DNA of 59,352 bases from an uncultured Gammaproteobacteria bacterium (GTDB lineage: Bacteria > Pseudomonadota > Gammaproteobacteria > GCA-002705445 > GCA-002716945): assembly GCA_902535975.1 (NCBI GenBank), contig CACAVP010000001.1, forward strand, positions 72,352 to 131,703, given 5' to 3'. How positions within the stretch are numbered: position 1 is the stretch's first letter; the number at the start of each line of letters is the position of its first letter. The position numbers and the translations under genes were made by a program. A model generated the notes under the pieces. The model saw only the letters and a program-made list of their open reading frames with translations, did not search any database and had not been told where the DNA came from. Shown in pieces: positions 3,435-38,503 of the stretch.

Positions 3435-4543
3435 TATTGTTTTCTTAAATTAATGTATAGATCATTTTTTATTGGCATGATCTCACTAATTCGCAGTGTT
3501 ATTTTGTCTTTAAGTCTTTGCACTGGATCTATTCCGGAAAAAGTATAACCTTTATCACCGATAATTTTTGGTGCTACAAAAAGCATAAACTCATCTACAG
3601 CATTTTCTTTAATGAGATATCTAGAGAAAGTATTGCCACACTCGATAAGAATATCATTCAAATCATAAGTATTAGCAATTTCATATATATCTTTAAGATT
3701 TACTTTTCCATTATTAAATGTATTCACGTATTTTATTACTACATTTTCACTGTATGTTTTAATTGGACGGTTATTCGTATTTTTTGAGTCTGTGATTATT
3801 ATAACTAGGCGATTTTTAGTTTTAAATATATTGGATGTCACTGGTATTCTCATTTTTGCATCCAAAACAATTAAAGCCGGTTGATTTGTTATAAGATCTT
3901 TTATTTTTTTTTCTCTTATATTCATGTATGGATTATCATCTATCACAGTGTTACAAGTTGTAAGTATGGCATTTACTTCCGCCCTTTTGCTTTGTACAAA
4001 AGTTCTGGAATCTTCAGATGTGATCCATTTACTCTCTTTTCTTTGATTTGCAATTTTCCCATCAATTGAAATGCCATATTTCAATCTCATATATGGCTTG
4101 TCATGGTTAAACTTATAGAAGAATGATTTATTTAGCTCCCTAGCATCTGATTCACAAACTCCTGTTGTCACATCAATTCCATTATCTTTTAATTTGTTTA
4201 TACTTTTTTCATTGACTAAAGGATTAGGATCTTTAGACGCAATTACTACCCTTGATATTTTGCTCTCTATTATGGCATCAACACATGGTGGTGTATTTCC
4301 ATAATGAGCACATGGCTCCAAAGTTACATACATAGTTGATCCTTTAAGACTTTCTTTGGACTTATCTATTGCTTCGCGTTCGGCATGTTTCCCTCGGAAT
4401 CTTTTGTGATAACCTTTGCTGATAATTTTATCATTTTTTACAATTACAGCTCCTACAAGCGGGTTTGGATGCGTTCGATATTTTCCATTTTTTGCTAACT
4501 CAATAGCTTTATTCATGTATTTCTTATCGGTAGTATTATTCAT
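3434..4543 (-). CDS. ribD: Bifunctional pyrimidine deaminase/reductase RibD
   Basis: PNPLVGAVIV, HAE, TLEPCAHYGNTPPC and DGKIA motifs. Start placed at ATG 4543, overlapping the nrdR stop by 8 nt (track starts at 4552). Confidence 0.95.
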   Translation of the reverse strand: MNNTTDKKYMNKAIELAKNGKYRTHPNPLVGAVIVKNDKIISKGYHKRFRGKHAEREAIDKSKESLKGSTMYVTLEPCAHYGNTPPCVDAIIESKISRVVIASKDPNPLVNEKSINKLKDNGIDVTTGVCESDARELNKSFFYKFNHDKPYMRLKYGISIDGKIANQRKESKWITSEDSRTFVQSKRAEVNAILTTCNTVIDDNPYMNIREKKIKDLITNQPALIVLDAKMRIPVTSNIFKTKNRLVIIITDSKNTNNRPIKTYSENVVIKYVNTFNNGKVNLKDIYEIANTYDLNDILIECGNTFSRYLIKENAVDEFMLFVAPKIIGDKGYTFSGIDPVQRLKDKITLRISEIMPIKNDLYINLRKQ

Positions 4544-5036
4544 CAATTTCAATTTTATTCTGGTTTTTTAACATAATAGGTGAAGGTTGTTTCTCAAGAT
4601 TTTCAATTATTGATTTAAAAGAGCGGACATCATTAAAGCTCAAATACACTGACGCAAATCTTAAATACGCAACCTGATCTACCTTAATTATTTCTCTCAT
4701 AATGATTTCTCCAATCTCTCTGGATGGAATCTCTTTATTTGGGTGCTGAGAGCACTTAGTTAGTACTTTTTGTACTAGTTCATCGATTTCGTCAATAGAA
4801 ACTTTTCTTTTTTCAAATGCTCTATTTATGCCTCTTCGAATTTTAGTTTCATTAAAAACCTCACTTGATTCATCAGATTTAGTAACACGAGGATAATTCA
4901 GCTCGGAAGACTCAAGTGTATTGAATCTAGCTCCACATACTAGACACTCTCTCCTACGCTTAATAGAATAGGAATCTTCATTGAAACGAGAGTCAATGAC
5001 TTTTGTCTCTGCTGAGCCACAAAATGGACAGCGCAT
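4536..5036 (-). CDS. nrdR: Transcriptional repressor NrdR
   Basis: MRCPFCG...RRRECLVCGARF zinc ribbon, ATP cone, VAYLRFASVY. Confidence 0.97.
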   Translation of the reverse strand: MRCPFCGSAETKVIDSRFNEDSYSIKRRRECLVCGARFNTLESSELNYPRVTKSDESSEVFNETKIRRGINRAFEKRKVSIDEIDELVQKVLTKCSQHPNKEIPSREIGEIIMREIIKVDQVAYLRFASVYLSFNDVRSFKSIIENLEKQPSPIMLKNQNKIEIDE

Positions 5037-5046
5037 AGGTCTTCTC

Positions 5047-6318
5047 TTAGGCTACTGCTTGTTTACTAGACGAATATACAGGGAATTGTGAGCATAGATT
5101 AAGAACCTTTTCCTTGATTTTTTTAATCTCCTCTTCATTGTCTATATTATCTAGGACATCACATATCAGATTGCCTAATATCTTTGTTTCAGTCTCTTTA
5201 AAACCGCGAGTTGTTATAGCTGGTGTTCCAAGTCGAATACCGCTCGTAACAAAAGGTGACTGAGGATCATTAGGAACTGAGTTCTTATTTACCGTTATAT
5301 TAGCACTATGTAGAGCAGCATCTGCAGCTTTGCCAGTCAGGCCTTGCTTGACTAAACTTACTAACATTAAATGATTTTTTGTTCCACCAGATACAATTTC
5401 AAAACCACGTTCCATCATTGTCTGTGCTAAAACATTTGCATTAGCGATAACTTGATTCATATAGTCTTTGAATTCAGGTTCGAGTGCTTCTTTAAATGCA
5501 ACAGCTTTAGCAGCAATAACGTGCATTAAAGGACCACCTTGAGTACCAGGGAATACTAGAGAATTAAATTTTTTCTCAAGTTCTTCGTTCGCTTTACAGA
5601 TAATGATTCCGCCTCTTGGCCCTCTCAATGTTTTATGTGTTGTCGAAGTTACGACATCTGCATAAGGGACGGGGTTTGGATAGACTCCAGCAGCTACTAA
5701 TCCAGAAACATGGGCCATATCGACATGGAAATACGCTCCGACTGATTTTGCAATCTCAGACATTCTTTTCCAGTCAATTATTTGAGAATATGCTGAAAAA
5801 CCACCAATCAACATTTTTGGTTTATGTTCTTTTGCGAGTTTCTCAACTTCATCGTAATCGATCAGTCCTTCTTCATTAATACCATATTGCACAGCGTTAA
5901 ATATTTTCCCTGAGAAATTAACTTTAGCGCCGTGTGTAAGATGTCCACCTGCATCCAAAGACATTCCCAAAATAGTATCGCCCGGTTTTAAAAGAGCAAG
6001 GTAGACAGCTGCATTAGCCTGCGAACCAGAGTGTGGCTGAACATTTGCATAATCTGCACCATATAATTCTTTGAGCCTATCTATGGCAAGTTGTTCTGCA
6101 ACATCAACGTTTTCACAACCACCATAATATCTCTTGCCAGGGTATCCCTCAGCATATTTATTAGTCATTAAAGATCCTTGAGCCTCAAGTACTCTTGGGC
6201 TTGCGTAATTTTCTGAGGCAATCAGTTCAACATGCTCTTCTTGTCTCTTTATCTCTTTTCTCATTGCATCATTGAGCTCATCATCAAATCCTGCAATTTT
6301 CATATCCATTGTAAACAT
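5047..6318 (-). CDS. glyA: Serine hydroxymethyltransferase
   Basis: [43 protein letters not shown]; SD GGAG upstream. Confidence 0.98.
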
Positions 6319-31167: not shown

Positions 31168-33753
31168 TTAATTAGCTAATTTTTTCAAGACATAATTAAG
31201 TATTCCATCATTGACGAAATATTCCCATTCCTTAGCTGTGTCGATTCTAACTTTGACCTCGAATTTTTTGCTTGAGTTGTCTTCAATAATAAAAACTGTT
31301 TTTGCTGTTTTATGTATAGACTCAATAGTAAAAGATGATTCCATAGATAAACCAAGCGAGTCAAAAGTGTCGCCTTTATCAAACTGAAGCGGCATTATTC
31401 CCATACCGACTAAATTTGATCGATGGATCCTTTCAAAACTCTCCGCAATTACAGCCTTGACGCCTAACAATTTTGTCCCTTTAGCGGCCCAATCACGTGA
31501 TGAGCCACAACCGTAGTCTTTACCAGCAAATATAATCAGGTTAGTATCAGTTTTCTTATACTCCTGTGCAGCATCGTAAATAGACATTTCGCTACCATTT
31601 AGAAGATATTTAGTGTACCCACCAGTTTTTTCTGGGACTAATTTATTAGATAGTCGAACATTTGCAAAAGTTCCTCTTTGCATTATCTTAAAATTCCCTC
31701 TTCTAGAACCATATGAATTAAAGTCCTTAACGTTAACTGAGTTTTCAATTAAGTGTTTACCTGCTGGTGTAGTATCTTTGAAAGAGCCAGCCGGAGATAT
31801 GTGATCTGTTGTAACGCTATCACCTAGTATGACTAGAGGATATGCAGACTCTATGGCAGGTAATAATTCATGGTTATCTTTACCCTCACCAAAGAAAGGA
31901 GATGGCTGTATATATGTCGATTGTTCATCCCAGTCAAATTGATCGGAATCTGAAGTTGGAATTGATGACCAGTTGTCATCACCATCAAATAGGTTCTCAT
32001 AAGATTGATTGAACATATCCCCATCAATAGTTTTTGCCATGACATCATTTATCTCGCTATTTGAAGGCCATATGTCCTTGAGATACACGTCTACACCTTC
32101 TGCGTCTTGTCCGAGTATTGTCTGATTGATATCAATATTAATTTTTCCAACAAGGGAATATGCAACAACAAGCATTGGGCTAGCTAAGAAATTCATTTTA
32201 ATCTCAGGATGTATTCTTCCTTCAAAGTTTCTGTTACCTGATAAAATAGAACTAACAATAAGATCTCTGTCATTAATTTCCTTGACATACTTCTCATCCA
32301 ACGGTCCTGAATTACCAATACATGTTGTACATCCGTACCCAACAATGTTGAAACCTAGTTGGTTCAGAGAGTCCAAAAGGTCTGCCTTTTTTAAATAATT
32401 TTCAACAACCCTTGATCCAGGCGCTAGAGATGTTTTAACCCAATCTTTTGTGGATAAACCCTTTTCGATTGCATTTTTAGCTAAAAGGCCTGCGCCTATT
32501 ATGACGCTTGGATTTGATGTATTAGTACAGCTTGTTATTGCAGCAATCAATATATCACCATCATTTATGACTCCAGTTGTTTTTTCTGTTTTTTTGAGAC
32601 TACTAATCTCTTTCTCAGAGATTTTCTTTACATCAGATAACAGCACCCTGTCTTGGGGCCTTTTAGGTCCAGATAAACAAGCTTGTACTTTACTCATATC
32701 TAGAGATAAAGTATCTGTATATTTTATATTTTGACTATCATCTCTAAAAAATCCACACTCTTTACTGTAATTATCAACAATTTTTAAATGTTCTTCATCT
32801 TTGCCAGTCATTTTTAGATAGTCAATGGTAAGTGAGTCAATTGGAAAAAATCCACAGGTTGCTCCATATTCAGGTGCCATATTCGATATTGTGCATCTGT
32901 CTGCAATAGTCAAACTGTCTAAACCTGAGCCATAAAATTCAACGAACTTTCCTACAACATTCTTTTCGCGTAGCATCTGCACAATTGTAAGAACCAGGTC
33001 GGTTGCAGTAGTTGTCTGTCCAAGCTCTCCAGTGAGTTCAAATCCAATAACTTCTGGAAGTAACATTGGTATCGGTTGCCCCAGCATCGCAGCTTCAGCC
33101 TCTATGCCACCTACACCCCAACCCAAAACACCTAAGCCGTTTACCATAGTTGTATGAGAGTCTGTTCCTACTACCGTGTCAGGATAAAGCATGCCTTCTT
33201 TCTCATATATAACTCTTGCGATGTATTCAATATTAATCTGGTGAATGATTCCATTGTTAGGAGGTACAATACGCAAATTTTTAAATGCTTGTTGGCCCCA
33301 CTTTAATAGTTTATACCTTTCAGTATTTCTCTCATACTCAAGCTTTGTATTTAAATCCTTTGATTCTGATGTCCCAAAATGATCAACCATAACAGAGTGG
33401 TCTATGACAAGGTCTGTTTGACATTGAGGGTTTACGACATCAGATTTTGAAGCATCCAGGGATTTCATAGCATCACGCATTGACGCAAGATCGACCACAG
33501 CAGGGACACCTGTAAAGTCTTGCATTATCACCCTACTTGGATAAAAAGTTAGCTCAGTGTTTTTATCGGCGGTCCCATCCCAATTAATAAACTTGTCAAT
33601 AATAGATTCATATTTTGAATTATCTGATTCGTTTCTCAAATAGTTTTCCATAAGTACTCTAAGGGAATATGGTAAGTGGTCTATCTTATATTTTTTTATA
33701 TTGAATATTCGAAAGTTACTATTATTTATAGAAATCTCTGTTTTTTCTGACAT
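31168..33753 (-). CDS. acnA: Aconitate hydratase A
   Basis: LPYSLRVLMEN, QDFTGVP, DHS, GTDSHT, AAITSCTNTSNP, GCTTCIGNSG, TTDHISPAG and GSSRDWAAKG. Confidence 0.97.
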   Translation of the reverse strand: MSEKTEISINNSNFRIFNIKKYKIDHLPYSLRVLMENYLRNESDNSKYESIIDKFINWDGTADKNTELTFYPSRVIMQDFTGVPAVVDLASMRDAMKSLDASKSDVVNPQCQTDLVIDHSVMVDHFGTSESKDLNTKLEYERNTERYKLLKWGQQAFKNLRIVPPNNGIIHQINIEYIARVIYEKEGMLYPDTVVGTDSHTTMVNGLGVLGWGVGGIEAEAAMLGQPIPMLLPEVIGFELTGELGQTTTATDLVLTIVQMLREKNVVGKFVEFYGSGLDSLTIADRCTISNMAPEYGATCGFFPIDSLTIDYLKMTGKDEEHLKIVDNYSKECGFFRDDSQNIKYTDTLSLDMSKVQACLSGPKRPQDRVLLSDVKKISEKEISSLKKTEKTTGVINDGDILIAAITSCTNTSNPSVIIGAGLLAKNAIEKGLSTKDWVKTSLAPGSRVVENYLKKADLLDSLNQLGFNIVGYGCTTCIGNSGPLDEKYVKEINDRDLIVSSILSGNRNFEGRIHPEIKMNFLASPMLVVAYSLVGKINIDINQTILGQDAEGVDVYLKDIWPSNSEINDVMAKTIDGDMFNQSYENLFDGDDNWSSIPTSDSDQFDWDEQSTYIQPSPFFGEGKDNHELLPAIESAYPLVILGDSVTTDHISPAGSFKDTTPAGKHLIENSVNVKDFNSYGSRRGNFKIMQRGTFANVRLSNKLVPEKTGGYTKYLLNGSEMSIYDAAQEYKKTDTNLIIFAGKDYGCGSSRDWAAKGTKLLGVKAVIAESFERIHRSNLVGMGIMPLQFDKGDTFDSLGLSMESSFTIESIHKTAKTVFIIEDNSSKKFEVKVRIDTAKEWEYFVNDGILNYVLKKLAN

Positions 33754-33783
33754 TATTTTTCCCTCTAGAATAGAATTTGCCGT

Positions 33784-33792
33784 ATTCTAACA
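33784..33792 (-). promoter_or_regulatory. Extended -10 element (TGtTAGAAT) upstream of acnA
   Basis: Consensus match 30 nt upstream of the ATG, followed by SD GAGGG. Confidence 0.42.
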
Positions 33793-33816
33793 AAAAAGTA
33801 AGATTAATTCTATGAA

Positions 33817-34245
33817 TTACTTAGGCGGCAACTTCTTTTGAACACTTTCAATATACATGCCTAATGAATCTTTGTTTGGTGAGCTATGCTTTTTTACAAC
33901 AACATCTTGGCCGTCTTTCTTGAGACTATTATATTTTCTTATGAACCTATTAAGGTCTATATTCTTTTTCATTCGATAAAGTCTCGGCTCTCTATTTTTT
34001 TCTTTAATCAAAATCAGTAAATTATCACCATCAATATAACTATTTAGAATATAAAAACTTTCAGGTAAGTCTTGGTTTACTGCATATCCTTCATTATTTT
34101 TTATATTTTGAAATAAAGCTATGAAAATAAGAGAAATACTCAAAGCAATAATAATTTTAAAATGAAACTTCTTATTTCTTAAGAAATTGTGAATGAGTAC
34201 AACATATATAACCAGTAACAATAGTAAATATAAGTATAGACTCAT
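33817..34245 (-). CDS. Hypothetical membrane-anchored protein (third gene of the MotA/ExbB-like module)
   Basis: Two N-terminal hydrophobic segments and a basic soluble C-terminus (EPRLYR motif); 4 nt after the upstream gene. Confidence 0.75.
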   Translation of the reverse strand: MSLYLYLLLLLVIYVVLIHNFLRNKKFHFKIIIALSISLIFIALFQNIKNNEGYAVNQDLPESFYILNSYIDGDNLLILIKEKNREPRLYRMKKNIDLNRFIRKYNSLKKDGQDVVVKKHSSPNKDSLGMYIESVQKKLPPK

Positions 34246-34249
34246 GAGT

Positions 34250-34861
34250 TTAAAAGCCTTTCAAATTATACGGCGTCAATATCTTCTTTTGATTGTCACC
34301 TGATGAGTAGTCGCCATTTTCATCAAGATAAAATCTAGTTACAGTTACCTCGGTATCTTTCTCAGCTAATGTTATATTGTTAGCATAAACTAGTTTTAGT
34401 GTTGGATTCACTTTTTCTATTATAACTTTCACATCCACAGGTAATTTGCTTTTATGTTCATAGAGATATAAATTTATAATATATTCACCTGGTATTATTC
34501 CTCTCAAGGTGACTACCTCTCTGTTGATTGGATAAATTATATCCTCTCCATCAATCGTAACAATATCATTCACAATTCCTTGATCGTCCCTGTCAAGATG
34601 TAACCATCCAGCATCTTTTTTTAAATACGAAACTGTTTCACCATTAGGATCTTGTACCCAAATATCTACATCATCTGGGAGACTATCTTTCCAATCAACT
34701 GTAACAATGTACTCTGCTTTCATATTTACATTACCTATTTTAGATATTGGATTTATGAAAAGAACAGTTATGAAAAATAAGAATGTAAATCCCAATAATG
34801 TGTTAAAAAGTAAGTCGGTAAAAGGCTCTGTCCTAGTTCTAGTCTTTCTTCTCATTATCAT
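34250..34861 (-). CDS. Single-pass protein with MotB/ExbD-like TM Asp and an extracytoplasmic domain
   Basis: RRK then PFTDLLFNTLLGFTFLFFITVLF; W-DDVDIWVQDPNGE-V-Y and HLDRDDQG. Start may be 34855. Confidence 0.75.
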   Translation of the reverse strand: MIMRRKTRTRTEPFTDLLFNTLLGFTFLFFITVLFINPISKIGNVNMKAEYIVTVDWKDSLPDDVDIWVQDPNGETVSYLKKDAGWLHLDRDDQGIVNDIVTIDGEDIIYPINREVVTLRGIIPGEYIINLYLYEHKSKLPVDVKVIIEKVNPTLKLVYANNITLAEKDTEVTVTRFYLDENGDYSSGDNQKKILTPYNLKGF

Positions 34862-35480
34862 CTGAACTTAAAATCTTACTGATAAAATTATTAATTTTAT
34901 TTTCAAAATAATTATTTTGTATAGTTAGGAGTATTGAGCAGATTAATCCGCTTAATGTTGTATAAAGAGCTACTTTCATTCCGCTACTCATACTTAATAA
35001 GAGATTATTCATTTTTGATAAATTCATTTCATCTATGGTTGATAAAGAGCTAAGCATTATAATAAAACCGATCACTGTTCCAATAATTCCAAGTTTTAAT
35101 AGTATGTCAGCAACAAAAAATCCGTTATCCACAATTTCATATAGTCTTGATTTCAATTGTTCTTGAAAAGACTTATTATTTGAAGTGTTTGATAATGAAG
35201 ATCTATACTCATCTAAAATTTCAATGAATATATTATTATTTGAACTACTATTTTCTTGAATTAGACTATTAATAGCATATCTAAGTTTGTATAAGTGGTA
35301 TCCTCCTCGAAACAAATAGAACGTAAAAATGGATACAATGATAGATGATATATAACTTATGTCTTCTCTAAATAATCCTGATATGAAGTCGAATGATTCA
35401 AGGATATAAATAGATATCAAAATTATAGAAACAAAATAAATCCAGTAGATAAAGATATTATCTATGTTACCGTTTTTCAT
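34839..35480 (-). CDS. MotA/TolQ/ExbB proton channel family protein
   Basis: Two N-terminal TMs; KLGIIGTVIGF and GMKVALYTTLSG signatures. Confidence 0.88.
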   Translation of the reverse strand: MKNGNIDNIFIYWIYFVSIILISIYILESFDFISGLFREDISYISSIIVSIFTFYLFRGGYHLYKLRYAINSLIQENSSSNNNIFIEILDEYRSSLSNTSNNKSFQEQLKSRLYEIVDNGFFVADILLKLGIIGTVIGFIIMLSSLSTIDEMNLSKMNNLLLSMSSGMKVALYTTLSGLICSILLTIQNNYFENKINNFISKILSSDDNEKKD

Positions 35481-36860
35481 TTATATCAATTTTTTTGGAT
35501 CTAGTATCTTTATGAGTTCTGTTTTCGTCAGAGTAGTCATTTTTTCAGCGACATCGAAGATAGAGCTATTAGTTCTGTATGCTTCTTTCACAACCTTAGA
35601 TGCTAAGTCGTATCCTATTACCTGATTAAGCTTTGTTGCAATTATAGGGTTTCTTAATAAATTTTCGTTAACAGAAGTCTCGTTTACTGTAAAGCTATCA
35701 ATAAGATCTATCATGCTAAAAGTAGAATTTATCATAAGATATAATGACTCAATAATATTATGGGCTATCAAGGGAAGCATGGTATTCAGCTGGAAGTTAC
35801 CACTACTAGAGGCTTGCACGATAGTACTATGATTTCCATTGACTTGGGTTGCTGCCATCATTATAGATTCCGATAGAACAGGATTAATTTTACCTGGCAT
35901 AATGCTGCTGCCTGGCTGAAGAGCTTTGAGGGTAATCTCTGAGAGTCCTGATATCGGACCACTGTTCATCCATCGAATATCATTTGCAATTTTTAATAAA
36001 GTAGACGCATATCTGGTGAGCGCAGAGCTCAGAGTGAGTATGTGATTTTGAGAGCTCATCATTTCTCCTTTTATCTCAAGAGGCTTAAATTTTATCTTCA
36101 TTTCACTGTATATTTTGTTCAACTCTTGACAAACATTCCTACTGAATTTTTTAGGAGAATTTATTCCTGTACCAATAGCAGTGCCACCAATAGGTAGGTA
36201 TGATATTTCTTCACATGATAAATCTATTTGTGATTGAGAAGCTCTCACCTGCTCTTCCCAGACATTTAGTTCTTGCTCAAAAGAAATGGGTACAGCGTCC
36301 ATCAGATGAGTCCTTCCCGATTTTATAATGTGAGCCAAAGATTTTGATCTAGCATTTATTGAATCACAAAGATAATTAATGGACATTGAAAGGCTTTTGC
36401 TCATTGTAAGACTAGATATATTGATGGTTGTTGGTATGACATCATTTGAACTCTGCGACATGTTTACATCATCATTGGGATGTACGTCTTTTTTATAATC
36501 TCTTTTTGCAATATTAGATATTACTTCGTTCATATTCATGTTTGTGCTTGTCCCAGAGCCAGTTTGAAATATGTCAACCGGAAAGTGATCCATGAAATCA
36601 TGTATATTAGACGAGATCTTATTAGCAACTGATGAGATACAGGTGGCTTTATTCTTTGGTAAGACCTTGCAGCTAGCATTTGCTCTTGCACAAGCAGTTT
36701 TTAGATTCGATAATGCTTGAATGAATGCAGGATCAAAAGTAATCCCGCTGATTTTAAAGTTATCTATTGCCCTTTGAGTTTGTGCTCCATAGAGTGCATT
36801 CCTTGCTACTTTAACTTTACCTAAGGAGTCTGTTTCAATCCTATAATTATTTTTTTTCAT
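35481..36860 (-). CDS. fumC: Fumarate hydratase class II
   Basis: YGAQTQRA, QTGSGTSTNMN, HPNDDVN, GRTHLMDA and GSSIMPGKINP. Confidence 0.96.
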   Translation of the reverse strand: MKKNNYRIETDSLGKVKVARNALYGAQTQRAIDNFKISGITFDPAFIQALSNLKTACARANASCKVLPKNKATCISSVANKISSNIHDFMDHFPVDIFQTGSGTSTNMNMNEVISNIAKRDYKKDVHPNDDVNMSQSSNDVIPTTINISSLTMSKSLSMSINYLCDSINARSKSLAHIIKSGRTHLMDAVPISFEQELNVWEEQVRASQSQIDLSCEEISYLPIGGTAIGTGINSPKKFSRNVCQELNKIYSEMKIKFKPLEIKGEMMSSQNHILTLSSALTRYASTLLKIANDIRWMNSGPISGLSEITLKALQPGSSIMPGKINPVLSESIMMAATQVNGNHSTIVQASSSGNFQLNTMLPLIAHNIIESLYLMINSTFSMIDLIDSFTVNETSVNENLLRNPIIATKLNQVIGYDLASKVVKEAYRTNSSIFDVAEKMTTLTKTELIKILDPKKLI

Positions 36861-36892
36861 ATACTTAGTAAATATAATTAAAACTAATTCTA

Positions 36893-36901
36893 TGGTATAA
36901 T
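36893..36901 (+). promoter_or_regulatory. Extended -10 element (TGgTATAAT) upstream of purB
   Basis: Perfect consensus 23 nt before ATG 36925. Confidence 0.52.
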
Positions 36902-36924
36902 ACCATTTTAAAAACCTGTTTAAT

Positions 36925-38289
36925 ATGAAAAATTATAATCTCAACATTTCTGCACCTACAGATGGAAGATATAGTGGTCTATGCGAGGAAATAAATAAAA
37001 TATTCTCTGAACATAATTTGATTAAAATGCGGGTTAAAGCTGAAATTGAATGGTTCATTTTTTTATCTAATCAAAAAAGCATTGAATCTTTACCAAAGTT
37101 TTCAGAATCGCAGACTGGGAATCTCAGAAAAATATATCAAGATTTTGGTTCAAAAGAATCATCGAGTGTAAAAAAAATTGAGGATACTACAAAGCATGAT
37201 GTGAAGGCTGTTGAATACTTCATAAAAAATAAAATCAAAAATAATAATTTACTAAATAAATATAAAGAGCACATTCATATATGCTGTACCTCGGAAGATA
37301 TTAATAACATTGCCTATTCTCTCATGATTAAAGAAGGAAGAGATCTTTTGATCTATCAAGCTAATATGCTTCAAAGAACAATTAAGTCAATGGCTAAAAA
37401 ATATAAAAATATAGCTATGTTATCTCATACTCATGGACAAGCAGCTTCACCAACTACCATGGGCAAAGAGTTTATTAATTTTTATAGGCGTCTCGATGCT
37501 CAAATACATGATCTTAATAACATTGAAATCAAAGGTAAGTTTAATGGGGCTACTGGAAACTATTCAGCCCACAGCGTCACATATCCAAAAGTGAATTGGC
37601 CAAACACCATGAGGAAGTTCGTTAATAGTTTAAAGCTTGAATTCAACAGTCATACTACACAAATAGAGCCACATGACTATATAGCTGACTTATGTCATAA
37701 AATTAATCATATAAATTCAATTTTAATTGGATTCTCACAGGATGTTTGGGCATATATTTCAAAAAACTACTTCACTCAAAAAAATATCAAAGGTGAAATT
37801 GGTTCCTCAACGATGCCGCATAAAATTAATCCAATAAATTTTGAGAACGCTGAAGGAAATCTTGGAATGAGTAATGCTATATCGAATTATTTTTCTAATA
37901 AACTAGTGATATCAAGACTGCAGCGTGATCTGTCAGATTCAACTGTACTTAGAAATATCGGTCTTGTATTCGCATACTCAATTGTTGCATATAAAAATAT
38001 TTCATTAGGTCTTAGTAAACTCGATATCAACAAACAAAAAATTAATGATGATCTTGATGAGTGTTGGGAAATATTAGCCGAGCCCATACAAATGGTTGCA
38101 AGAAAATATCATATATCAAACTCGTATGAATATCTCAAAAAAAATACACGTGGTAAGAAAGTTGATAAGGGAGTAATTGAGAAAATTATTACAAACTTAC
38201 ATATACCGGAAAATGAAAAAAGTAGACTTCTAGAATTGACTCCTCGAAAATACATAGGCTATGCGTGTAAGCTTTGTGATGTTAAATAA
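36925..38289 (+). CDS. purB: Adenylosuccinate lyase
   Basis: PTDGRY, TKHDVKAVEYF, TSEDINN, THGQAASPTT, GSSTMPHKINP and LQRDLSDST. Confidence 0.97.
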   Translation: MKNYNLNISAPTDGRYSGLCEEINKIFSEHNLIKMRVKAEIEWFIFLSNQKSIESLPKFSESQTGNLRKIYQDFGSKESSSVKKIEDTTKHDVKAVEYFIKNKIKNNNLLNKYKEHIHICCTSEDINNIAYSLMIKEGRDLLIYQANMLQRTIKSMAKKYKNIAMLSHTHGQAASPTTMGKEFINFYRRLDAQIHDLNNIEIKGKFNGATGNYSAHSVTYPKVNWPNTMRKFVNSLKLEFNSHTTQIEPHDYIADLCHKINHINSILIGFSQDVWAYISKNYFTQKNIKGEIGSSTMPHKINPINFENAEGNLGMSNAISNYFSNKLVISRLQRDLSDSTVLRNIGLVFAYSIVAYKNISLGLSKLDINKQKINDDLDECWEILAEPIQMVARKYHISNSYEYLKKNTRGKKVDKGVIEKIITNLHIPENEKSRLLELTPRKYIGYACKLCDVK

Positions 38290-38503
38290 TCATGACATTA
38301 TAAGTTTAATTGAAAATCGTTTAGACAGTGTGAGTGCTGAATACCAATCCGTAGATAATAAGATTGAAATTTATAGACTTGATGGAGATTTAATAATCTT
38401 AGAGATTAACCAAAACTTATTCTCGATTTTATATAGAGAAAAGAAATATGATTTTAAAGAATCAGATCAATTTTTTAATAAATTAGAAGAATTAATTACT
38501 TAA
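38279..38503 (+). CDS. Hypothetical 74-aa acidic protein
   Basis: ORF overlapping the purB end (ATG 38279) and the convergent lysS stop; no family recognised. Confidence 0.55.
   Translation: MLNNHDIISLIENRLDSVSAEYQSVDNKIEIYRLDGDLIILEINQNLFSILYREKKYDFKESDQFFNKLEELIT

Follow-up and report, generated by a model that had tools for sequence, protein, structure and literature searches.

A run of three small genes separates fumC from acnA in an uncultured gammaproteobacterium, and the first of them encodes a membrane protein of the MotA/TolQ/ExbB family. The known outputs of MotA/ExbB-type motors are few, namely, flagellar rotation, gliding, TonB-dependent uptake, Tol-Pal envelope maintenance, and Zorya defense. 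The question raised by this locus is whether the three genes encode one of these systems, a further motor of the same kind, or something else altogether. We analyzed them within a stretch of 59,352 nucleotides of DNA, referred to here as the window.

Gene order and distribution of the trio

Table 1. Genes of the trio and the genes that flank it (positions are those of the window)
Feature	Position	Strand	Description
Gene 1 (A subunit)	34839..35480	minus	divergent MotA/TolQ/ExbB-family membrane protein, 213 aa
Gene 2 (B subunit)	34250..34855	minus	201 aa; TM helix and periplasmic beta-sandwich
Gene 3 (C subunit)	33817..34245	minus	142 aa; two-helix hairpin and periplasmic domain
fumC (class II fumarase), context	35481..36860	minus	TAA stop codon abuts the gene 1 ATG with zero gap
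acnA (aconitase), context	31168..33753	minus	63 nt downstream of gene 3, same strand

An earlier reading of this DNA (the original prediction) had described the three genes as overlapping or nearly abutting, with the first beginning at the fumC stop codon, and the coordinates agree with this description. Genes 1 and 2 overlap by 17 nt (23 nt if gene 2 begins at position 34861), and 4 nt separate the stop of gene 2 from the start of gene 3. This overlapping and abutting arrangement suggests that genes 1 to 3 are translationally coupled; no terminator-like sites were found between positions 33000 and 37200. The ORF list for the 30- to 40-kb portion of the window held only housekeeping genes as neighbors, in keeping with the earlier statement that no tonB, tolA/B, flagellar, or Zorya effector genes lie nearby. 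The same fumC-trio-acnA order was also observed in marine relatives (loci L082 to L087), with the Pfam models Lyase_1 and FumaraseC_C supporting the identity of fumC.

When the neighborhood of the trio was surveyed more widely, the three genes were found to co-occur, being adjacent and co-directional at 79 of 80 proteobacterial genome loci and at 79 of 80 IMG/VR viral loci. The trio was also present in Rhizobium phage RHph_I1_9 and phage 16-3, both cultured phages of Rhizobium/Sinorhizobium, and on chromid p1 of Azospirillum brasilense Sp7 (locus L179, positions 4142 to 6085). Carriers of gene 2 make up ~4% of high-quality Pseudomonadota genomes, and the trio is patchy across the Proteobacteria and common in phages. 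In one database protein (P0210), gene 1-like and gene 2-like parts are fused in a single frame. None of ten long viral variants of gene 2 or gene 3, and none of ten long variants from the database, showed a fusion to lysozyme. At an E value of ≤0.001, gene 2 had 1,705 relatives (counted as 50%-identity cluster representatives), and gene 3 was homologous to the third gene at all 80 genome loci, with its profile also matching the phage copies. Given that gene 2 relatives are numerous and that homologues from alpha-, beta-, and gammaproteobacteria share invariant residues in gene 3 (G53, P61, P87, R88, P140, and K142), the trio is real and more than a chance arrangement.

The genes flanking the trio in bacteria were lineage specific (vWA-FHA, DUF302, YkuD, and DUF3108-like genes) and shared no theme. 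Since the flanking genes vary by lineage while the trio stays together, it is the trio that appears to be the functional unit; neither the bacterial nor the phage neighborhoods contained a pointer to its target.

The gene 1 product and its relation to Zorya

Gene 1 matched the Pfam MotA_ExbB model (PF01618) with an E value of 2.9e-11 and a score of 43.7 bits, above the family cutoff of 22.9, and its relatives likewise exceeded this cutoff. The protein has four hydrophobic segments, the second of which falls slightly below the hydropathy threshold in the window copy and is clear in relatives, as well as a shortened cytoplasmic loop. It contains the motifs GIIGTVIGF and VALYTTLSG, such that the Thr/Gly proton-path motifs of the last two TM helices (GTVIGF and ALYTT) are kept. 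A4, G134, G138, F139, G167, A171, L172, T175, and Q188 are invariant in the family alignment, and T135 and T174 are conserved in at least 90% of its members. The original prediction of a four-TM MotA/TolQ/ExbB protein with channel threonines was thus borne out, and gene 1 is a very divergent member of this family. When the gene 1 family profile was compared with solved structures, the nearest were ZorA (8vvn, E = 0.0064), TolQ (8odt, E = 0.08), and MotA (8gqy, E = 0.085); by this profile comparison, the three are equally distant from gene 1.

The copies of gene 1 in phages and Pelagibacteraceae are only about 150 to 175 aa long and do not carry the cytoplasmic insert. That these copies are nearly devoid of a cytoplasmic loop argues that the trio performs its work in the periplasm or envelope rather than in the cytoplasm.

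Because the top named matches of gene 1 were ZorA models together with 8vvn, its closest solved structure, we considered whether the trio might be a Zorya-like module for defense against phages or for the exclusion of one phage by another, which would sense envelope perturbation and then depolarize or signal. The presence of the trio in ~4% of genomes and its frequency in phages would fit such a role, since a spread of this type is typical of conflict systems. However, the matches to ZorA were far below threshold (27.9 bits against an NCBIfam cutoff of 100; E = 3.5e-7 for the PADLOC model) and limited to the shared TM core, and TolQ models likewise matched gene 1 far beneath their cutoffs. Unlike Zorya, the trio lacks the long ZorA tail and the OmpA-like ZorB domain, as well as ZorC, ZorD, and ZorE, and its surroundings in the window are housekeeping genes. 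No recurrent effector was found beside the trio in 160 loci, whether a ZorC/ZorD/ZorE-like gene or a nuclease, and neither gene 2 nor gene 3 matched a PADLOC model. The conserved fumC-acnA synteny in streamlined genomes also speaks against a defensive role. Zorya itself is therefore ruled out by the subthreshold ZorA scores and the absence of effectors, and a defense or exclusion module of any related type seems quite improbable.

The putative partner subunits and their relation to Ton/Tol

Gene 2 most likely starts at position 34855 (MRRKTRTRTEPFTD...), which gives a protein of 201 aa that matches its closest homologues in length; the alternative, a listed ATG at position 34861, would give 203 aa. 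Its N-terminal segment contains 5 Lys/Arg residues versus 2 Asp/Glu residues, and this basic character predicts that it faces the cytoplasm. The sequence FTD opens the sole TM helix, and its Asp (Asp14) was invariant in 28 of 28 diverse homologues, as were W55, D62, D64, D90, D91, G93, E113, and G123. An AlphaFold2 (AF2) model (pLDDT, 88.6) placed a helix at residues 10 to 33 and a beta-sandwich at residues 49 to 185. Gene 2 therefore has the basic N terminus and the single FTD-initiated TM helix originally ascribed to it, followed by the beta-rich outer domain bearing DDVDIWVQDP and HLDRDDQG, and a lone TM helix of predicted N-in topology that carries a conserved Asp close to the cytoplasm is the pattern expected of a B subunit.

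The periplasmic domain of gene 2 does not belong to a curated family, with zero matches in Pfam, NCBIfam, PADLOC, and PHROGs; a PDB sequence search likewise yielded nothing significant. The resemblance to YfaP/DUF2135 that had been suggested for this domain was recovered at the profile level: the gene 2 family profile aligned with a genuine DUF2135 protein, and the alignment spanned the WxxxxDLDL...PG.Y core (hhalign, 92.7%, E = 4.2e-7). The 48-position DUF2135 model (PF09906) did not match gene 2 of the window and matched 1 of 28 homologues at 6.2e-4. These comparisons indicate that the gene 2 domain is related to DUF2135 at the superfamily level, short of membership. When the AF2 model was searched against the PDB with Foldseek, the sole match at an E value of ≤0.001 was the TerD homologue 2qz7 (chain B; E = 2.7e-4; TM, 0.45/0.51), and a search against BFVD returned just generic sandwiches within large phage proteins. 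No sequence match to TerD was found; the invariant acidic cluster of gene 2 consists of D62, D64, D90, D91, and E113. As modeled, the periplasmic domain of gene 2 is of the DUF2135/YfaP-like type, with a predicted TerD-like fold.

The outer domain had also been described as unlike those of ExbD, MotB, and OmpA, and our searches agree. Neither Pfam nor NCBIfam detected ExbD (PF02472) in gene 2, and 1 of 28 homologues matched it at an E value of 0.005; Pfam likewise detected no OmpA-like domain of the MotB/ZorB type, and the model is an all-beta sandwich. A full-length hhalign comparison of the gene 2 profile with ten ExbD/TolR sequences gave no relevant alignment, whereas the N terminus of gene 2 alone aligned Asp14 with the ExbD Asp, albeit weakly (P = 0.0055). 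Since the full-length comparison was empty and the N-terminal match was weak, the assignment of gene 2 as a B subunit rests on pattern and context.

Gene 3 had been described as a membrane-anchored protein of unknown family. We observed two predicted TM helices that form a hairpin in the membrane and are joined by a short basic loop (3 Lys/Arg and 0 acidic residues), followed by a small predicted periplasmic domain with beta-beta-beta-alpha-beta-beta order (OB-like; AF2 pLDDT, 87.6) and a conserved LPxK tail at the C terminus. It had no Pfam match and no significant PDB sequence match, and Foldseek yielded weak OB-like barrels, none of them significant. No PHROGs family was found for gene 3 or for genes 1 and 2, including the phage versions. 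Judging from its homologues, gene 3 is a conserved third member of the trio that lies outside known families.

The layout of the trio resembles those of ExbB-ExbD-TonB and TolQ-TolR-TolA, in that a ring protein, a small partner whose one helix buries an Asp and that has a periplasmic domain, and a membrane-anchored periplasmic protein are encoded together, and the Thr motifs of the last two A-subunit helices of ExbB/TolQ are conserved in gene 1. The differences are nonetheless extensive. Compared with ExbB/TolQ, gene 1 encodes one more helix at the N terminus, which results in a four-helix, MotA-like count; gene 2 carries a DUF2135/TerD-like beta-sandwich in place of the ExbD/TolR fold; and gene 3, unlike TonB and TolA, has two TM helices and lacks the conserved His, the Pro-rich linker, and the TonB_C/TolA domain. 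Although the window copy of gene 3 does contain a His (His19), this residue is not conserved in the family alignment. No TolB/Pal or TonB-dependent receptor was linked to the trio. The original prediction would have yielded to gene 2 being a canonical ExbD/TolR, to gene 3 being a TonB/TolA, or to the three genes not occurring together elsewhere; we found the reverse on all of these points.

A search of the assembly to which the window belongs found no ExbD gene. A canonical ExbB-ExbD-ExbD-TonB set is encoded elsewhere in sister genomes of the genus, and in 10 of 12 of them, the sole other MotA/ExbB gene is this canonical one, which together with the two ExbD genes and TonB beside it makes up a Ton set. 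The genus appears to lack TolB, given that TolB_N was detected in 0 of 13 genomes, several of them 90 to 98% complete, in a search with one HMM in metagenome-assembled genomes (MAGs), compared with its detection in 7 of the 8 further genera of the class that were sampled. These observations, along with the conserved placement of the trio between core genes, would favor a divergent Tol-like envelope system that replaces TolQRA-TolB-Pal in a genus with ~1-Mb genomes and serves outer membrane attachment or constriction. The absence of TolB on which this idea depends nevertheless comes from a single HMM in MAGs, and TolB was present in all 16 of the other trio-carrying Pseudomonadota genomes tested, which implies that the trio is not a general Tol substitute. 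Pal and TolB are not adjacent to the trio, an ExbD/TolR domain is absent from gene 2, and gene 3 lacks TolA/TonB features, such that replacement of Tol is, in our judgment, unlikely. A canonical Ton/Tol system is ruled out by these missing domains and features and by the coexistence of the trio with TolB.

Proposed mechanism and comparison with known systems

Taken together, these data lead us to lean toward the view that the products of the trio assemble into a single, self-contained machine in the inner membrane, a MotA/ExbB-type "5:2 motor" that brings its own B and C subunits. Specifically, we infer a proton motor of the 5:2 type in which the B and C subunits are new and the work is directed to the periplasm, where topology prediction places the domains of both gene 2 and gene 3. 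The gene 1 product would form the proton-conducting ring, presumably a pentamer, and would enclose the gene 2 TM helix, which is presumably dimeric, in a complex of this stoichiometry. Coupling to protons would occur as Asp14 of gene 2 takes up and releases protons beside the conserved Thr residues in gene 1, which would power either a rotation of the parts against each other or a cycle of conformational change. The gene 2 beta-sandwich, whose invariant acidic cluster makes it a putative and probable Ca2+-binding domain, would serve as an anchor or grip that replaces the periplasmic domains of ExbD, TolR, and MotB. The gene 3 product would attach through its two-helix hairpin, with the OB-like domain and LPxK tail exposed to the periplasm, where they would either be moved themselves or make contact with the target; that gene 3 is the transducer is a guess.

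The same subunits could instead constitute a gated ion channel or membrane-permeabilizing device that governs membrane potential or lysis timing, with the beta-sandwich sensing periplasmic Ca2+ or another ligand. The minimal phage versions (gene 1 of ~150 aa), the suggestion of cation sensing in the invariant acidic cluster, and the lack of an identifiable mechanical target are all compatible with a channel. However, to our knowledge, every characterized MotA/ExbB-family complex acts as a motor or transduces force, a third subunit that is conserved and has a folded domain in the periplasm better suits a transducer, and no lysis genes were adjacent to the trio in the phage loci examined. We therefore regard the channel as improbable and retain the periplasmic motor, for whose output our best guess is an envelope maintenance or remodeling task.

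A motor of this type would represent a further branch, two of whose subunit families are unnamed in curated libraries, and it extends across abundant streamlined marine bacteria, soil alpha- and betaproteobacteria, and hundreds of phage contigs. The minimal phage trio may be the smallest motor of the MotA/ExbB kind. Knowing its output would reveal what phages gain from a periplasmic device of their own that is driven by the proton motive force, as well as which task a 1-Mb genome cannot do without, and the trio is open to direct testing in A. brasilense Sp7 and in Sinorhizobium meliloti with phage 16-3.

We found no published description of the trio in the literature on DUF2135/YfaP, TerD, ExbB/MotA/ZorA/GldL, and phage-encoded ExbB/TolQ. 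It is conceivable, if still tentative, that it represents an unrecognized proton-driven 5:2 class beside Mot, Ton/Tol, Gld/Agl, and Zorya, one that combines a Ca2+-binding DUF2135/TerD-like axle with a two-helix OB-fold transducer and acts purely in the periplasm. Such a class would belong to the core set of free-living marine genomes that are among the smallest and serve many phages as a portable envelope-manipulating device, and it may partly cover envelope integrity in the apparently Tol-less genus. TerD proteins act in the cytoplasm as stress proteins that bind Ca2+, and we know of no YfaP/DUF2135 or TerD protein that pairs with a MotA/ExbB protein. Both nevertheless share the beta-sandwich type with gene 2, as judged by profile alignment and by the fold match to 2qz7, respectively; YfaP has been described as a soluble protein of the periplasm without an assigned function (bioRxiv 10.1101/2025.03.20.643886).

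The closest precedent for the gene 2 arrangement is computational. In a recent study, vWA proteins were proposed as non-ExbD "transpore-helix" (TPH) partners for TolQ-like rings (Mol Biol Evol 2025, PMC12204202), and the gene 2 family is not mentioned in the text searched. As described there, the TPH-vWA/tolQ-like pairs resemble the trio in that a tolR/exbD neighbor is missing and an Asp-bearing ExbD-like helix is fused to an unrelated periplasmic domain. They differ from it in that the partner domain is vWA, whereas the trio has a DUF2135/TerD-like domain and a conserved third subunit.

Organization of the locus

The trio (genes 1, 2 and 3, the proposed A, B and C subunits) is flanked by the TCA-cycle genes fumC and acnA (31168-36860, minus strand), with gaps of 0 and 63 nt, a layout which suggests that fumC to acnA constitute a single putative transcription unit. 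A consensus scan of 33000-37200 found no terminator-like site, and shuffled sequence contained promoter-like sites at least as often. Since the closest homologues of gene 2 are 201 aa long, we prefer the ATG at 34855 over the ORF list start at 34861; gene 2 then overlaps the end of gene 1 by 17 nt. The order lysS-purB-fumC-trio-acnA-hflD-mnmA is retained whole in marine relatives at 70 to 77% identity (retrieved loci L082 to L087). Between purB and lysS, a small ORF of 80 to 82 aa, which overlaps the end of purB and has no Pfam family, is conserved in the window and in marine relatives.

Features of the trio locus and of related loci (window positions unless a retrieved locus, L, or a sister genome, G, is named)
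Feature	Location	Strand	Remarks
fumC	36860-35481	minus	stop codon TAA
Gene 1	35480-34839	minus	213 aa; starts at the base directly after the fumC TAA
Gene 2	34855-34250	minus	201 aa; ATG, MRRKTRTRTEPFTD...
Gene 3	34245-33817	minus	142 aa; starts 4 nt past the gene 2 stop
acnA		minus	starts 63 nt past gene 3
purB-lysS small ORF	38261-38503	plus	
Same, marine relatives	L082:1209-1457; L085:1232-1474		
DUF2135 protein	L178:925-1686		passes the DUF2135 model
Canonical ExbB, ExbD and TonB_C genes	G001:C9:60397-67280		example
vWA-FHA protein	L029:7150-8658		the 19 other loci gammaproteobacterial
Azospirillum brasilense Sp7 trio	L179:4142-6085		chromid; plasmid ABSP7_p1, NZ_CP012915.1
Phage 16-3 trio	DQ500118.1 22651-24512		L089
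Epimerase-like gene	L124:2701-3777		21 further contigs

The three protein families

The motifs cited in the original prediction are all present in the window sequence, and its assignment of gene 1 to the MotA/TolQ/ExbB type is borne out: the protein scores 43.7 bits against Pfam MotA_ExbB (cutoff, 22.9; E = 2.9e-11; residues 130 to 202), and GTVIGF and ALYTT are kept across an alignment of 20 orthologues, in which the invariant positions are G134, G138, F139, G167, A171, L172, T175 and Q188; T135 and T174 are conserved almost throughout. Scores against the ZorA (27.9 bits; cutoff, 100) and TolQ (20.7 bits; cutoff, 221) models fall far under threshold, while PADLOC ZorA models match the same 80 residues at about E = 1e-7. 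A Zorya system was rejected given these subthreshold ZorA scores, the lack of a ZorA tail and of an effector, and the housekeeping context. Searched against solved structures, the family profile gave E values of 0.0064 for ZorA (8vvn), 0.08 for TolQ (8odt) and 0.085 for MotA (8gqy), and the family is about equally distant from all three. Compared with TolQ, gene 1 has one additional N-terminal hydrophobic helix. Its helix 2-3 loop varies in length between lineages; the protein has 247 aa in sister marine lineages and about 150 to 175 aa in Pelagibacteraceae and phages.

Gene 2 matched nothing in Pfam, NCBIfam, PADLOC, PHROGs or PDB sequences, yet its family is large: a word-indexed search returned 1233 matches, and 1705 representatives of 50%-identity clusters matched at E ≤ 0.001 (1031 at E ≤ 1e-10). 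Among 28 aligned members with 30 to 45% identity to the window protein, D14, W55, D62, D64, D90, D91, G93, E113 and G123 are invariant. The AlphaFold model (pLDDT, 88.6) has a single helix (10-33) and a beta-sandwich (49-185), which is predicted to be periplasmic since the N-terminal segment is net basic. Foldseek gave a single PDB match at E ≤ 0.001, a TerD homologue (2qz7_B; E = 2.7e-4; TM, 0.45/0.51). The resemblance of this outer domain to YfaP/DUF2135, proposed originally, holds at the profile level (92.7% probability, E = 4.2e-7, against a DUF2135 protein), with the alignment covering the core W..D.DL...P.G ... PG.Y; the short Pfam DUF2135 model itself touches only 1 of the 28 members. 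No paper on DUF2135 was found in a literature search, and YfaP is still carried as uncharacterized. Because the full-length profile found nothing among ten ExbD/TolR sequences, whereas the N-termini alone place the gene 2 Asp weakly on the ExbD Asp (P = 0.0055), gene 2 is ExbD-like in design yet outside the ExbD family, and its outer domain is not that of ExbD, as had been predicted.

Gene 3 has no family match in Pfam, NCBIfam or PADLOC, in agreement with the original view of it, though it is the conserved third gene of the trio: the ORF after gene 2 encodes a two-TM protein of about 170 aa in 80/80 genome loci (best 80 of 221 relatives). G53, P61, P87, R88, P140 and K142 are invariant in the alignment with the window protein, the last two within an LPxK at the C-terminus, which in many members is where the protein stops. 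The model (pLDDT, 87.6) combines a helical hairpin (3-22 and 27-51) with a small beta1-2-3/alpha/beta4-5 domain of OB-like topology; neither Foldseek nor sequence searches of the PDB gave a significant match, and the weak ones were mostly OB-type barrels. Since the inter-helix loop carries two to four Lys/Arg residues and no more than one acidic residue, the domain is predicted to be periplasmic. The first-helix His seen in the window protein is not retained across the family, and gene 3 therefore lacks a TonB/TolA-type motif.

Distribution in bacteria and phages

The finding is real, and the trio behaves as a unit. A pattern scan with one genome per species yielded 221 relatives, and in 79 of the best 80 loci, from Alpha-, Beta- and Gammaproteobacteria, genes 1, 2 and 3 are adjacent and codirectional; the lone exception is interrupted by a contig end. 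Carriers include Rhodopila globiformis, Alsobacter ponti, Azohydromonas caseinilytica, Geminicoccaceae, Methylibium/Rubrivivax and Pelagibacteraceae. The distribution is patchy: gene 2 occurs in 16/393 high-quality genomes (11/234 genera) evenly sampled from Pseudomonadota. Within the genus, 11 of 12 sister genomes have a trio-type gene 1. Azospirillum brasilense, a genetically tractable model bacterium, carries the full trio; by tblastn, the seven Azospirillum records with a match have two matching places each. P0210, a 411-aa protein from a representative library, joins a MotA_ExbB part (160-230) to a gene 2-like part (272-406) and could be either a genuine A-B fusion or a gene call frameshifted where the two genes overlap.

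The remaining neighbors differ by lineage (vWA-FHA membrane protein, DUF302, YkuD and DUF3108-like). In 20/80 loci, the next gene after the trio, on the same strand, encodes a 502-aa membrane protein whose vWA domain precedes a hydrophobic segment and whose FHA domain comes after it; by analogy with related "transpore-helix" systems, it may link the trio to vWA/FHA signaling.

Gene 2 also matched 29 Rhizobium/Sinorhizobium phage records (tblastn). In RHph_I1_9, three successive "hypothetical" genes match the trio profiles (gene 1, 96%, E = 3.3e-9; gene 2, E = 1.9e-40; gene 3, 93%, E = 3.4e-7). Temperate phage 16-3 has a diverged, looser trio (p038, p040 and p042) with small genes p039 and p041 inserted; just upstream lies p036, a trypsin-like periplasmic protease gene. 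IMG/VR contained 201 relatives, with the full trio in 79 of the best 80 loci. No lysozyme fusion was seen among ten long viral gene 2/gene 3 variants or ten long database variants. We regard the IMG/VR contigs as genuine phage because large terminase, head protease, primase and ERCC4-type nuclease genes recur as neighbors. In about 22 of them, a PHROGs "nucleotide-sugar epimerase" match directly follows the trio, with ERCC4-type nuclease, head protease and terminase genes beyond.

A candidate motor and its relation to known systems

A Ton role was discarded since, in 10/12 sister genomes, the one canonical ExbB gene, two ExbD genes and a TonB_C gene lie elsewhere, with ExbD and TonB next to each other. 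That set was not found in the window's own 75%-complete assembly, probably owing to incompleteness. A Tol role was likewise discarded: gene 2 is not TolR, gene 3 is not TolA, and TolB is also present in 16/16 other trio-carrying genomes. TolB_N (PF04052) was not found in any of the 13 genomes of the genus (roughly 1 Mb) and was found in 7/8 other genera of the class. Besides Ton, the trio is the sole MotA/ExbB-type module in the genus, which may lack any Tol-Pal.

The most economical reading of the trio is a 5:2-type proton motor, and as far as sequence analysis reaches, the original interpretation is upheld. Gene 1 would form the ring, the Asp-bearing helix of gene 2 (the Asp being invariant) the axle, and the acidic beta-sandwich, which probably binds Ca2+, an anchor or grip in the periplasm; gene 3 would be a peripheral two-helix subunit presenting the OB-like domain and LPxK tail. 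Because minimal versions have no cytoplasmic domain, the output would have to be periplasmic. We infer that the three proteins form a complex, and likewise its stoichiometry, coupling to protons, metal binding and target.

The B and C subunits appear to be new families in a known kind of machine, one that is widespread, common to bacteria and phages and open to experiment. The trio family is not singled out in the passages searched of a recent MotAB/"GIT" survey (PMC12505986). A comparable idea, a TolQ-like ring with a transpore helix-vWA partner, has been proposed computationally (PMC12204202); in that system the transpore helix is fused to a vWA domain, whereas the gene 2 sandwich is DUF2135/TerD-like.
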